Below, in pieces: positions 59,306 to 64,000 of a DNA stretch of 64,000 bases. The notes beneath the pieces are model-generated. The model made no database searches, was not told the DNA's origin, and worked only from the letters and a program-made list of their open reading frames with translations. A program made the translations under genes and the position numbers. Numbering within the stretch: position 1 is the stretch's first letter; each line of letters opens with the position of its first letter. Source of the stretch: Podospora anserina (taxonomy: Eukaryota); NCBI GenBank assembly GCA_017654855.1, contig CM030333.1, forward strand, positions 372,001 to 436,000, given 5' to 3'.

Positions 59306-61514
59306 TTTGCGAGTTTGATATTGGGGATAGGGGATATCTTGTTTACCTAAGAGTCAGTACTTGTATAAACATATGAAGCTCGAGTCATTCTCATCTTGTG
59401 ATGAGAGACAGCAGGTAGCACTTACAACAACGGGAGTTGCCTAATCGAGGTCTGAGACAAGGCCTGAGAATGGAGGTTACCTTCATGTGAGCTCACCTTT
59501 GAGAGGAAAAGAGAAAGATCAACAGTGATTCAGACAATGTGGACAAGGGCCCGGCAACGGCAACTGATGTCATCCCCACATTGCCGGTTCCGCAGCGGGT
59601 GACGGCGGGACAGAGCGGAGGTTTAGTGCGGGGGTATCCACCCCCTTTGCTGTAGCGGGACCATGTTCGGTAAGTATTTATTTACTTCGGCTTCAACTCT
59701 TTTCTAAATCTTGACATGGAAATACATGAGACACCGGATGACCAGATTATATAGGGCTTTCTTGCCACGATGCTGTTCACAAGGACTCAGAAGCGATTCG
59801 AAGCTTGATTTCCTAGGTACACATTCATTTCTCTTGTGAAGTACTGTTCGTGGCCCATCTTCCCAGTGAGCTTCAAATGACAGTCTTTGTTACTGTGTGT
59901 CACAAGGGGAACTTACACATATGATTCCGCTTGAAATTGGAATAACTTCCGCTTCACCACCACACCTTTTGCAAAGTTTGTGGAAAAGAGGCCTCTCTGC
60001 CTGGTAACTTTTCTAAGCACAAACTACTTCGATAGCCATTTCTATATTCAACACTTCTCCTTGATAGCTTGGTCTTTTATCTTGAACAAATTTGAAAACA
60101 GTGATTAAAGGACAATGTCCACAAAAGAGATATGAATGACTTGGTATATACATAATTAACTGACACACACGCATTACTCGCATGCCAATGACATTAGATC
60201 TCAAGCTTGCATCGATGGGGTCTCAAATGGTCGTTGAAGCCGGCATGCGCTTGCAGTTACTCACCGGGCCGTGGGCATTTCCTTTGAACTGGAAATGGAA
60301 GTGGCTCCCAAGTCACTGGGGAGCATGAACAGGAAGGTCATTTCCAAGATCAGCTGTACCGGCGTCAAATACCCCCCGAGACCCGCCTCCTGGGTAGGCA
60401 AGCGCAGAGAAGCTCCTTCTCTGGTATGTGACAGACTCAGCAAAGTGATGCTCTGGTGTTCCCAAACCTTCTCTCCTCTCCTCTCTTCCACCAATTCATC
60501 ACAGAGCGAAGTTGGGATTTCCAGCCCTACATAGCCAACTTGCCCACTCCCGGCCTCCTCTCTTCTTTTTTGGGTACATTGTGACATATTGTCTTTACCG
60601 GCATCCTTCATCAATCTGGCCTTGCCTTGTTCCACCTTGTGAACACCACCTGAGCGTTTTTTTGGGAGCGAGCGAGCGATCGAAATCAAATCACAACTGC
60701 ATGAATCATCTTGGACGACCGAGCACTACAATTGCCAATATAAAGAGGCTCGATACCTTACCTCCCCATCTTCTTTGCCGTCTCTATTGTGTTTTGGACT
60801 GGTCTCTCGGCACGTAATATTCCCGTCTGATACCTGGGTGCCTGGGCTGCGTAAAATTGGCTGCGAGTTGTCTTAAGAGAAGACTGAGGAGCTTTGCACT
60901 GGAGGGAGGCATTTCAAAGCCAAGACCACTCTTCAAACTGCTATTATTGGCTCAATTTTACAATCGACGACATCATCAGCTTGGTTTCCGGGGCCAAGGG
61001 CAGGATAGCTCTCGCCATTTTGGTCACATCTTGCTGTCAACACAGGACCAATTTCCTGGCGGCTGGGAAAACCCCTCGTCTCCCTTCCTAGGCAACTGTC
61101 TTTTCAACCTGACCACAAGCAGGAACAATTTCTTTGTCTCTCCTCAACTAGCAAGCTTCCTGGCAAGTTCGTCAACCATCTAGCTTGGAACAACTTCAAC
61201 GATCTCGCCTCAGTACAACTTGGTGTGAGGCTTCTGAAACGTTCAACTGGCTGGCCATCTTCTGGTTGACCATACTCTGTAAGTCTTCTCATACTTGGTG
61301 CTCCCCATTCTCCAATGAATCAGGCCTTTCAGTTGATGATTCACTGGGGGTTGATCCTCTTTTGGCGAGGATATTGAGAGATGATCCGAGGATTGAGTCC
61401 ATCTGGGGATATCTGCAACAACGTCAGCTAACCAAGGATTGAAACAGTCTACTGCCGTCACTCATTCCTCTCGATTTTAATCTTGGTCCTCCGATCGGAC
61501 TTCCCAACATCAAC

Positions 61515-63863
61515 ATGCTTCTTCCACGCCACTCAAGCAAAATCCAGCCTCATGGCTCCCAGGCCACCACTAGGCCAAGTCGGCTGAGATCTCCTGGTCT
61601 TCGGCTCAAGACAAGTTCGCTCGATCTTATTCCTTCAGATGAGAAGGCCCAGGCGATGGCTTCAGCCGACTGGAGAAAGATGGCGCCGGATTCTGGCCTC
61701 GGCGATAATCGTCAGCAGATTTCAGACGAGAATAGCAGACATCCATCCGACCAGAATGATGGCTTTTACTCGCCCTTTGTGCTGGGGATGAAGCCTATGA
61801 ATACTGGATCAAGGGCTCAGTACCAGTATGCTAGGGACCCTACAAGCGGCATTGCTTGGGAGGTCATTTCATCGGCTCCTGGGTGCGATTTCAGGCGGGA
61901 GGAAACGAGAACCAGCGAGTCGTCAGGCATACCGTCCTCAATCCTCAAGGCGTGCCAACCGAACCTCCAAAACACCACGATGGTGCGGCTTAAGGCCATC
62001 AAGCCAATGAACGTGAGCATCAACGGCGACATCATCAAACTGCCCAACAAGTACTCTTTGGATGTTACCCCTGTTGACATCCAAGAGCCAGACGCTGCTT
62101 GCTTTATGAACAGGGAACACGGCGAGATCCTGGCCACTCTCAAGCTCCTCAAGCCCAAGGCCCGCTTACGCCGTATGAAGTCCGAGCTTCACGAAGAGAG
62201 CGTTCTGAAAGATCTGGATGACTTCTTGTCCCAACAGAGTGGGAAGCCTCCAAAGGTCGTCGCGGCAAGCAAGGAAGCTCAACGCCAAAACCGTAGGTCA
62301 TCGGGGCATTGGAGCAGCCATGACTCTGGAATCTCAACCAGTTCTGAAACCTCTGGCCTTCAGAAAGAGATGCCTTTAGGGGCACATCACCGAACACCTG
62401 CGGAAGGTCACCGCTTTCAGACACTACTCAGCCGCCTACACTTGACCACGGAGACAAGAGAAGCTTCCCAGCCGCCGACAGCACCTGATCATGCTGAGAC
62501 GTCGAAGAGCCATGCTCAGGTGGTGGATCCTGCAATTATCGCCGCAAAGGTCAAAGACGAAGAGCGCGAGGAGACGCCCGACAACTCGGAAAGGGGCGCG
62601 CGCGAAGGTACCTTTTTCGGAAGGGATTCTACCTTGCTGTTTGGGAAGGGTAAATGGGCGCAAAAATCACACGATTCTGGCTATTCAACATTCCATTTCA
62701 TGAAGCAGGGCACACAAGAACCAACAAGGCCCAAGGCGGTCGAGCATTTTGGTCCTACGGTTCAGAAGCGCAAAGAAGATTCAACATCATGTTCAACCAC
62801 CTCAACCAAGTTGAATCCCACAGCTGCCGAATTCAAGTCGGTCACCAAAGGTGACCTCAAGTCAGGGGTGAAGAGCGATTTCAAGCCCGCGCCTGCAGCT
62901 TATCCTGCCCCTCCCTGGACTCCAAAAAGACGGACACGGCCTTTACTCAACAATATCTTTCCTGGTGTACTGGAAGATCCCGGTTTCATGGCCCAGACAG
63001 TGCCATTTGTGGCAAACGATTGTCTTCAAGGTAGTCCATGGCAGACAAGTGGTCCTCCAACAGGGCCAGTGTGGGTGGCTGAACCGGGACAGCCTATCCC
63101 AGAGATGGCCTTCCAACCACCAGTAGCACCAATAGCAATGGCACCTCTTCCCATTGTTGATCCAGTTACGCAGCAGTTGGTCCCACCACCCTTCGCTCCT
63201 CCGCCCAGCAACTTTGGAACCTTCCCGCCTTCCGGAATCGCTCCTATTGCCAGCCAGATGCCAGGTCCCAACCCCGTATTTAGCACGCTTCCTCCATTGC
63301 GGCCTCCCCCAGCCCCCAGACCAAGATTTTCTCAGCCTATCCCGATTCCTCCTGGGCAAAGAGCCCCTATGCCCGCCGTGCCGAATGCAACTAGCTTCCA
63401 AGCACCTACTCTATACGGTCCAACTCTTGTTGCCGGTCCACCGCCTCCTTTGGCCTAGGATGGCAAGGGACCACGACCGGTATTTCCCGTCACCCAGAAA
63501 CCACGAGACCATGACCCTGTGAAGCAGCAGGCATATGAATCGTATCTGGAGTGGCGAAAGGCCAATGAGCCTGGCTATCACATGAAGTGCAAAATGCGTC
63601 AAGCACACCGTGTGGTTCGTCAATACCAGCAACAGGCGCAGACTGCTGACTGGAAGACCGTAGCTGGGCAGGCCAAAGCAGCAGCTGGAGCGTTGGAAGC
63701 ACATGCAGCCGAGGAAAAGAGGAGGTCAAAAGAAGCAGCTCTCAAGGAGCAATTCAAAATGAGTGTGAAGAGGGTAGCAGAGTCCTCTGGAGCCACGGAG
63801 ATAAAGGAACAAACACTTCCGGACACGAATAATGAAAAGCAAACACAAACATTGGTCATATAA
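61515..63863 (+). CDS. Hypothetical protein with PAM2-like motif and Pro-rich region, interrupted by one in-frame TAG (63456-63458); 782 aa if the stop is recoded
   Basis: ORFs 61515..63458 and 63519..63863 are in the same frame (offset 2004 nt), separated only by TAG. The read-through gives ...PPPLA*DGKGPRPVFPVTQKPRDHDPVKQQAYESYLEWRKANEPGYHMKCKMRQAHR... Confidence 0.75.
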
Positions 63864-64000
63864 AGCACACGATGACGAAAAGAGGGATATGCCCGTTTGC
63901 TCCGGAATACGATTCTTGTCATTTCGAAAGCTCGCTCGCTCAGGACAATTCTTTTCAACAGTTAGCAACCTTCGTTTCCGTTCCCCATCTTATTATATTG

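Follow-up and report, generated by a model that had tools for sequence, protein, structure and literature searches.

Fusarium graminearum and Neurospora crassa correct premature stop codons by A-to-I mRNA editing, for which they use the tRNA deaminase Tad2/Tad3 together with cofactors, Ame1 among them. Podospora anserina has long served as a model in research on sexual development, ageing and meiotic drive. In F. graminearum, 71 genes contain a premature stop codon that is corrected by editing. Edited 'pseudogenes' of that species are PUK1, AMD1, FgAMA1 and FgRID (PMC4817773, Liu et al. 2016; PMC10776026, Qi et al. 2024; reviewed in PMC11156358). The F. graminearum zinc-finger transcription factor CHE1 has a conserved premature stop that is edited at a low level in vegetative hyphae (PMC11169179). 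Within the Sordariales, A-to-I editing occurs during sexual development of N. crassa and Sordaria macrospora (PMC11156358, PMC10776026). A developmental gate of another kind is found in yeast AMA1, where an intron is spliced only in meiosis (PMC10776026).

For P. anserina, no catalogue of A-to-I editing was found in the literature searched, and the 2022 re-annotation paper has 0 instances of the word 'editing' in its main text. A preprint about sexual development in P. anserina mentions editing in passing and describes ADAT-type genes as differentially expressed in the sexual cycle (bioRxiv 10.1101/2024.12.09.627484). Elsewhere, editing figured only among the references of one paper, and another brought up Podospora solely as a species for later comparison. 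No Podospora paper naming the gene described here, Pa_2_400 (PODANS_2_400), was found in this search.

The Pa_2_400 locus and its likeness to known editing sites

A 64,000-nt stretch of P. anserina DNA (the window) was examined. An earlier note, made from the letters of the window, had proposed that an in-frame UAG in one of its ORFs is corrected by editing. The gene with the internal stop is Pa_2_400. Its ORF begins with the ATG at 61515, runs for 647 codons and is terminated by the TAG at 63456-63458. A further 134 sense codons follow in the same frame, up to the TAA at 63863-63865, for a total of 782 codons if the TAG is decoded as sense. Both the 647-codon ORF and its in-frame extension, as the earlier note had them, were recovered when the frame was recomputed from the sequence, and the C-terminal peptide it quoted was found in the translation after the TAG. 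The features of the locus are as follows.

61000..61278, + strand, 5' UTR exon (X1 record 1, 872 nt, depth 91.6, spans 61000-61278 and joins 61448)
61279..61447, + strand, true 5' UTR intron of 169 nt (joint 61278^61448, GT..AG, in an X1 contig)
61515..63455, + strand, CDS codons 1-647 of Pa_2_400 (ORF search and protein comparison)
61811..61811, + strand, second A>G difference of X1, TCA>TCG, synonymous (X1 record 2, depth 109.6)
62805..62840, + strand, PAM2-like motif TKLNPTAAEFKS, residues 431-442 (PF07145, sub-threshold)
63165..63458, + strand, annotated 294-nt "intron" GTTACG...CCTAG, equal to codons 551-648 (retained in RNA)
63446..63470, + strand, predicted RNA hairpin, weakly supported, whose 6-nt loop U[A]GGAU (63456-63461) exposes A63457 (MFE of the 31-nt and 61-nt folds)
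63456..63458, + strand, in-frame TAG, codon 648 (TAG in DNA; A63457 is G in X1 RNA)
63459..63865, + strand, CDS codons 649-782 and TAA (frame, conservation, AlphaFold2 model)

Pa_2_400 was placed on the + strand because the 5' UTR splice reads GT..AG in X1, one of the public RNA runs described below. Its transcript starts upstream of 61000, since X1 record 1 extends beyond the aligned region. The gene would consist of a single coding exon, 61515-63865, behind the spliced 5' UTR intron. The open frame by itself is weak evidence: 2261/20000 (11%) mononucleotide shuffles of the Pro-rich 291 nt before the TAG are also open. The case is made by homology and RNA data instead.

On these data the TAG of Pa_2_400 is very probably a premature-stop-correcting A-to-I mRNA editing site. 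The locus resembles the F. graminearum genes in having a UAG within a conserved ORF and UGG in RNA, in apparent purifying selection past the stop, and in a stop that arose inside the Sordariomycetes and was kept in related species. The site itself has a U at -1 and a purine at +1, as the F. graminearum sites do; a hairpin loop like theirs is predicted in some of its folds. As is frequent there, its TAG does not derive from an ancestral Trp codon. It differs in belonging to Podospora (Sordariales) and to a different, uncharacterised family that lacks a Pfam domain. With CHE1 it has in common a site found in related species, a U before the putatively edited A, and an annotation confused by the stop; the A of CHE1 lies in a hairpin loop, as A63457 does in some predicted folds. 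Unlike CHE1, with its low-level editing in hyphae, the putatively edited form of Pa_2_400 is the majority form in one RNA sample. N. crassa and S. macrospora are in the same fungal order and offer the same class of event, UAG>UGG. Homologue searches recovered no Neurospora or Sordaria orthologue of Pa_2_400, and hence none that is known to be edited; the nearest Sordariaceae-like match was in Copromyces sp. As in yeast AMA1, a block to the ORF can be removed after transcription. While AMA1 uses splicing, the block in Pa_2_400 would be removed by a base change, and no splice across the stop was seen in the aligned contigs.

The base at 63457 in RNA and DNA

RNA data were taken from public runs as assembled contigs, which give the majority base only and from which no editing level can be derived. 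The alignment covered four runs (X1, X2, X3 and X5) from four studies. The run records give RNA as a guess for all of them, and X1 was counted as RNA only because one of its contigs has the GT..AG splice 61278^61448. X1 covers 2384 bases and is without cover at 61717-61775 and 62123-62232; interpretation was confined to the covered parts of the four runs. The earlier note had expected unspliced RNA to show A>G at 63457, and this was borne out by a high-depth contig: X1 record 3 (2101 nt, depth 185.9) aligns unbroken to 62233-64000 and its sole difference is A>G at 63457. The change turns TAG into TGG (Trp) at a depth of 185.9 of 185.9. The low-depth contigs of X3 (record 12) and X5 (record 15) have A at this position. 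Thus, the base at 63457 differs between RNA samples.

The DNA side was examined with 109 sampled words from 62800-63900. Five genome-size runs from two studies (X12-X16) contain 1.00 of these words. X1 contains 0.97 of them, and its only mismatch in this stretch is 63457. We infer that the approximately three words missing from X1 are those over 63457, all of which are present in the DNA runs. The middle base of the stop is therefore A in DNA and G in the RNA of X1, with DNA and RNA perhaps from different strains.

If the strains do differ, the G could be genomic. X1 and four contigs encoding a 782-aa protein would then come from a P. anserina strain with a TGG allele, and no editing would be involved. 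Alleles can mimic editing, and X1 was compared without DNA of its own strain. A second X1 difference, A>G at 61811, also points toward another strain because it is unlike an editing site: the base at -1 is C, and A61811 is predicted to be paired (P(unpaired) 0.04). X3 record 9 has A there. Of the two options for this change, an editing site of atypical kind and a SNP between strains, the SNP fits better; X1 would then be a different strain from the window. Against a TGG allele, both X1 differences in the 2384 covered bases are sense-strand A>G, and one of them falls exactly on the central A of the single stop in the frame.

The distribution of the two forms among contigs also argues against such an allele. 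A separate gene call (P0067) is 782 aa long with W at codon 648, and 781/781 of its other residues match the read-through protein of the window. It is found on 4 contigs, all short, the longest being 5301 nt, so that the 782-aa form is confined to contigs of 5.3 kb or less. The ORF that ends at the stop (600 aa) is found on 18 contigs, in sets whose longest contigs are 46-82 kb. Genome-size contigs yield only ORFs terminated at the stop: 14 of the P. anserina form, 2+1 of a P. comata-like form and 1 of a third form. The Triangularia setosa model stops at the same ...GPPPPLA. The earlier note had listed a sequencing error or a strain-specific nonsense allele among the outcomes that would undo its reading. 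Both are excluded by the presence of the stop in at least three haplotype forms and in T. setosa, and by the intact words in the five genome-size runs. The 684-aa model is the same in all six Podospora species that have it, which implies that the stop is present there too. Taking these points together, we consider a genomic TGG in the strain of X1 to be improbable.

Sequence context was then compared with that of known sites. Editing sites in F. graminearum have U at -1 in 85.74% and G at +1 in 36.92%, with enrichment of G at +2 and A at +3; only 1.25% have C at -1, and hairpin loops are favoured for the edited A (PMC4817773). The context given in the earlier note for A63457 was right. The site reads CCU[A]GGAU (-1 U, +1 G, +2 G, +3 A) and so agrees with the preference for U at -1, A/G at +1, G at +2 and A/G at +3. 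A63457 lies in a predicted hairpin loop in the 31-nt and 61-nt folds (61 nt being the length used in PMC4817773) and is paired in the 41-nt and 101-nt folds; its P(unpaired) is 0.92. The 61-nt context has an MFE of -23.3 kcal/mol, the lowest among the 13 UAG contexts of the covered mRNA. The hairpin is weakly supported (z -1.86), with 9/200 shuffles folding equally well. Folding places 6/13 UAG triplets of the covered mRNA in hairpin loops; therefore, loop position does not single out 63457.

The annotated intron and the conserved C-terminus

The reference models avoid the stop in another way. In six Podospora species they treat the 294 nt of 63165-63458 as an in-frame intron and excise it, and the same excised-intron model is present in Cercophora samala, Apiosordaria backusii and Triangularia verruculosa. 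The resulting 684-aa models join ...PIVDP|DGKG..., and the window protein equals the P. anserina S mat+ protein except for residues 551-648. If the annotation were right, the product would be 684 aa and the unspliced RNA would represent intron retention. The segment has GT...AG boundaries and a length that is a multiple of 3, and the model recurs across the six Podospora species and three other genera.

The RNA does not agree with excision. No 63165^63458 junction was found in 4/4 aligned runs, each from a different study, at the level of contigs, which could hide a rare or minor spliced isoform. Four contigs pass through 63165 uncut (X1 record 3, X2 record 4, X3 record 11 and X5 record 14). 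The earlier note had named splicing among the outcomes that would refute its reading and pointed to 63276 and 63378 as weak donors. In the four aligned runs, no splice that takes out the TAG was seen from either of these donors or from the annotated one at 63165.

Splice signals and length are also unlike those of a spliceosomal intron. The donor is GTTACG, and no CTRAY branch site occurs in 63165-63458. The true 5' UTR intron has the donor GTAAGT and the branch site CTAAC 16 nt from the AG, whereas the annotated 294-nt intron has neither signal. The mean intron of P. anserina is 80 bp (PMC9801653), in contrast to the 294 nt annotated here. The acceptor AG is nothing other than the AG of the TAG, exactly where a gene predictor made to avoid a stop would put it.

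Finally, the segment is conserved as protein. In comparison with T. setosa, 76/97 residues are identical in 63165-63458 and 397/542 upstream of it, and indels are whole-codon. The segment aligns to coding sequence in the unbroken proteins of Cladorrhinum samala and P. australis. Codons 551-648 thus occupy 63165-63458, the RNA retains them, and the reference gene model is wrong. A real intron at this position is even less probable than a TGG allele. To conceal the stop, the reference model drops 98 genuine codons. Five sister species received a copy of this model, and three other genera have the same one.

The part of the protein beyond the stop was compared across genera. Post-stop residues 649-704 are identical at 55/56 positions in three other genera and are the best-conserved part of the protein, while residues 1-550 are identical at 341-409/550 positions (62-74%) in those genera. 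In distant relatives residues 649-704 are identical at 47-50/56 positions. Purifying selection past the stop, the absence of which the earlier note would have counted against itself, appears to be strong judging from the 55/56 identity. An in-frame UAG in genomic DNA therefore lies within a conserved ORF. Translational read-through of the UAG, or a decaying pseudogene with a relic downstream frame, is the least probable explanation: the stop is genuine in DNA and read-through requires no RNA change, which leaves it as a possible minor route, but it is superfluous where the RNA already has UGG, and a relic is excluded by the higher identity of residues 649-704 than of the upstream protein.

The conserved domain comprises residues ∼654-704 (nt 63474-63626) and is followed by a long helix. 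An AlphaFold2 model of the 134-aa C-terminal piece predicts helices at 20-36, 40-62 and 65-111 with a mean pLDDT of 78.4. Pfam identified 0 families on the whole protein or on the C-terminal piece. Foldseek against the PDB with the C-terminal model returned two matches, with E values of 7.5 and 9.3 and none ≤0.001, and a protein atlas search with the protein gave no usable match. Upstream of the stop, PF07145 scored 14.3 bits (E 0.035) on residues 431-442 and 14.3-14.5 bits (E about 0.03) in 3/5 40-aa segments, below the gathering cut-off of 20 bits, and did not match the whole protein. L433, N434, P435, A437 and F440 of this motif are invariant in 24 sequences. With a sub-threshold score, the motif is a PAM2-like lead only.

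The TAG codon aligns with A, P, S or T in relatives, not with W; therefore, editing would not restore an ancestral residue. The restored residue is often non-ancestral at the premature stops described by Qi et al. (PMC10776026). 13/17 metagenomic relatives are continuous through the stop region in one ORF and 4/17 are cut by contig ends. A stop ahead of the C-terminal domain was found in 0/17, including the four that are cut. Three of these relatives (L001-L003) form one near-identical group and two (L005-L006) another, which leaves fewer than 17 distinct relatives.

Editing as a possible two-state switch

Correction of the stop by editing is supported by the G at 63457 in RNA, the lack of splicing and the selection past the stop. 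A63457 of the Pa_2_400 mRNA would be deaminated to inosine, and the ribosome would read UIG as UGG (Trp) at codon 648. By analogy, the candidate enzyme would be Tad2/Tad3 with Ame1-type cofactors. The edited mRNA would encode a 782-aa protein with the conserved C-terminal helical domain. The unedited mRNA would encode a 647-aa protein that lacks this domain, or would be degraded.

A more ambitious proposal has two parts. The TAG may have been a real two-state switch through the history of the P. anserina/Triangularia/Cercophora samala/Apiosordaria clade, and its annotation may be a signature that marks hidden editing-corrected genes. We felt that both parts holding together was possible but rather doubtful. 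In the unedited state the switch would give a 647-aa protein, still with its short motifs (the PAM2-like one included) but without the C-terminal domain, or a message silenced by NMD. In the edited state it would give the full 782-aa protein solely where editing is active. Sexual-stage specificity cannot be assumed because the premature stop of CHE1 is edited in F. graminearum hyphae (PMC11169179). The signature of hidden genes would be an in-frame 'intron' with a length that is a multiple of 3, ending in TAG, with no consensus donor or branch site, that is never spliced.

Pa_2_400 would provide a concrete, data-backed A-to-I stop-correction site in P. anserina. As the editing mechanism is already known, the gain is in extent and annotation and not in principle. 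With TGG, TAA and deletion alleles, the gene offers a test outside Fusarium of the idea that 'restorative editing resolves survival-reproduction trade-offs'. A cheap screen for similar genes could look for in-frame 'introns' with a TAG at their end and no sign of splicing. Separately, the whole window was scanned for single stops flanked on each side by at least 100 open codons; this returned 18 places, 10 of them with TAG. 1/10 of these TAGs is inside a canonical intron. In the same scan, the +1184 frame gives a low-complexity nonsense translation.

Reading frame and gene identity

The window sequence contains a 647-codon frame from ATG 61515 that is closed by TAG 63456-63458, and beyond the TAG 134 further codons stay open in frame up to TAA 63863-63865. 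Both the ORF and its open extension had been described in an earlier note proposing A-to-I editing of A63457 (UAG to UGG, Trp), and were reproduced, as was the base context, CCU[A]GGAU. The open frame by itself is weak evidence because 2261/20000 shuffles of the proline-rich 291 nt preceding the TAG were likewise open. Homology and RNA carry the argument.

The read-through protein (782 aa) was used as a query, which generated 58 relatives at E ≤0.001 from 8000 scored candidates. The named relatives were all Sordariales, with Podospora comata the top match (98%). A cluster look-up identified the gene as PODANS_2_400 (Pa_2_400) on chromosome 2 of P. anserina S mat+, whose 684-aa protein equals the window translation without difference except at residues 551-648. 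Pfam gave no family for the whole read-through protein or for its C-terminal piece. No publications on Pa_2_400 were found; the literature matches listed concern Pseudomonas PA2400.

A and G at position 63457

The survey took in 24 runs that share one organism label, and the record lists none as RNA. Logan contigs, not reads, of four runs from four studies (X1, X2, X3 and X5) were aligned to 61000-64000; contigs conceal minority editing. X1 holds spliced RNA, and the gene lies on the + strand, because record 1 (a record is one assembled contig) has a GT..AG joint 61278^61448 with 169 nt skipped. X1 record 3 (2101 nt, depth 185.9) is continuous across 62233-64000 and differs from the window solely by A>G at 63457, the change predicted for unspliced RNA. 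Within 62800-63900 X1 mismatches the window at 63457 alone, and 1/13 UAG triplets in covered mRNA reads G in X1 contigs. X3 record 12 and X5 record 15 (each depth 3-4) have A.

X1 record 2 has a single difference, A>G at 61811 (TCA>TCG, synonymous), seen in X1 RNA alone. The base is predicted to be paired and has C at -1. Either editing at an unusual site or a strain SNP would account for it; it looks like a SNP, and X1 may therefore be another strain. A genomic TGG allele as the source of the G at 63457 is nevertheless very improbable. X1 contained 0.97 of 109 sampled words, while five genome-size runs from two studies (X12-X16) contained 1.00. We infer that the ∼3 words missing from X1 are those spanning 63457, and that X12-X16 contain them and hence A.

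The P. comata protein cluster, which includes raw ORF calls from Logan assemblies, provides both forms. The 600-aa ORF (M48 to A647, closed by the stop) came from 14+2+1+1 contigs, the longest 46-82 kb, while the 782-aa ORF (P0067) came from 4 contigs, the longest just 5301 nt. P0067 equals the window read-through at 781/781 residues, with W at codon 648. Among the four 600-aa sequences, one is of the P. anserina form, two are P. comata-like (differing from P. comata at 0 or 1 positions over residues 48-550) and the fourth represents a third form; each ends ...GPPPPLA. By these contig sizes, several haplotypes carry the stop in genome-like contigs, and Trp is seen only in transcript-sized ones.

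Premature-stop-correcting (PSC) editing, in which UAG becomes UGG, has been established for F. graminearum (71 genes) and N. crassa (PMC10776026, PMC11156358). The stops in those fungi originated within Sordariomycetes, frequently at codons that did not encode Trp. The mechanism is already known and Pa_2_400 is very probably a further case of it. No Podospora editing catalogue was found in the main text of the literature searched. U occupies -1 in 85.74% of F. graminearum sites (PMC4817773), +1 is A or G, G is enriched at +2 and A/G at +3; likewise, 63457 has U at -1, G at +1, G at +2 and A at +3. Hairpin loops of 61-nt folds hold 62.4% of the F. graminearum sites (PMC4817773). In a 61-nt fold A63457 is predicted in a 6-nt hairpin loop (P(unpaired) 0.92), and its MFE (-23.3) is the lowest among 13 UAG contexts in covered mRNA, 6/13 of which are hairpin-loop UAGs. 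The z-score is -1.86 and the A is paired in other fold lengths; the predicted hairpin may weakly back editing of 63457. Developmental stage cannot be assumed because editing at one PSC site occurs in hyphae (PMC11169179).

The annotated intron

The 684-aa model fuses ...APLPIVDP straight to DGKGPRPVFPVTQ..., and therefore removes one stretch.

63165-63458, + strand, spliced out by the 684-aa model (294 nt, 98 codons, GTTACG...CCTAG)

The acceptor AG is the final two bases of the TAG. The same model recurs in P. comata, P. pseudoanserina, P. pseudopauciseta, P. bellae-mahoneyi and P. pseudocomata, as well as in Cercophora samala, Apiosordaria backusii and Triangularia verruculosa. The Triangularia setosa model, in contrast, keeps the equivalent as coding and ends at the identical ...GPPPPLA.

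The annotated intron is coding sequence. It has GTTACG as donor, and no CTRAY branch site was found in 63165-63458, while the true 5' UTR intron has a GTAAGT donor and a CTAAC lying 16 nt from its AG. P. anserina introns average 80 bp (PMC9801653), against 294 nt for the annotated intron. As protein the stretch is identical to T. setosa at 76/97 residues (27/30 over the last 30; 397/542 over residues 1-550), with indels of whole codons. Cladorrhinum samala (...PPPAPRPAFAQ...) and P. australis (...NATTFQAPTLYGPT...) both encode the same module, uninterrupted into the C-terminal domain. Of 17 metagenomic relatives, some near-duplicates of each other, 13 have a single ORF of 619-865 codons into the domain and 4 are cut by contig ends; 0/17 has a stop ahead of the domain.

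One contig per run crosses the supposed donor (X1 record 3, X2 record 4, X3 record 11, X5 record 14). Splicing out of the TAG, which the earlier note named as a refutation, was absent: the joint 63165^63458 occurs in contigs of 0/4 runs (X1, X2, X3, X5). This splice as the main route is slightly less probable still than a genomic allele. The practical upshot is a reference model that is wrong, both in a model organism and in related species.

The model of P0040 (Cladorrhinum sp. PSN259, 597 aa) ends in the Pro-rich region (...EAPTLYGPA), ahead of the C-terminal domain; this may reflect an artefact of the model or another premature stop that arose independently. Upstream, 61000-61514 is a long leader containing the 169-nt intron. 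X1 record 1 reaches another 324 nt upstream of 61000, giving a 5' UTR of at least about 670 nt, unless this record merges two transcripts. Where Pa_2_400 is barely covered, a far deeper contig begins in the 3' CDS end and extends beyond the window end, which suggests a neighbouring or overlapping transcript at 63572-64000, on either strand.

From 63572, X5 record 16, depth 14.5
From 63632, X2 record 7, depth 67
From 63900, X3 record 13, depth 105

The C-terminal segment, the origin of the stop and the protein family

Judging from conservation, the segment downstream of the TAG is translated. C. samala, A. backusii and T. verruculosa match residues 649-704 at 55/56 positions, compared with 341-409/550 over residues 1-550; distant relatives match residues 649-704 at 47-50/56. 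The majority of invariant columns in alignments of 24 sequences fall within this domain. Read-through of the UAG, or a downstream frame that is a relic, is the least probable alternative. The predicted structure (33-row alignment) has three helices, with mean pLDDT 78.4 and pTM 0.37; the C-terminal model had no fold match in the PDB and no match in the protein atlas.

The earlier note proposed checking whether orthologues carry TGG or a conserved TAG at codon 648; relatives align A, P, S or T of the linker ...LFG[APST][DE]GK... there, not Trp. A sense codon occupies this position in P. australis, in Cladorrhinum samala and in species further away, so the stop is derived in the clade that unites P. 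anserina, Triangularia, C. samala and Apiosordaria. Where the intron model applies, the codon is probably TAG, because the acceptor AG falls at the stop. An ORF terminating at that point adds to this for P. comata-like DNA; for T. setosa the evidence shows a stop of unspecified codon.

The C-terminal query gave 77 matches, with the family spread across Sordariales and one distant Trichoderma relative. The family protein is largely variable, with short conserved motifs, and residues 1-550 (61515-63164) show such motifs within an otherwise fast-evolving protein.

Conserved motifs, residues 1-550: KAQAMASADWRK, RFQxLLSRL, DPAIIAAKVK, SxDSGY[SAG][ST], LNPxAAEFK, SPKKxxRPPLTNxFP

DSGY-x-[ST] is a candidate phosphodegron by resemblance. 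LNPxAAEFK scored 14.3-14.5 bits against Pfam PAM2, below the cut-off of 20, in 3/5 segments tested; a possible link to poly(A)-binding protein is no more than a lead.

Window-wide, 18 places have two open stretches of ≥100 codons each that are interrupted by one stop, which is TAG at 10/18, for example:

1184, + strand
32711, + strand
47150, + strand
4374, - strand
6759, - strand

The + 1184 frame translates to low-complexity nonsense, and the + 32711 stop lies inside a canonical GTATGT...CTAAC intron.
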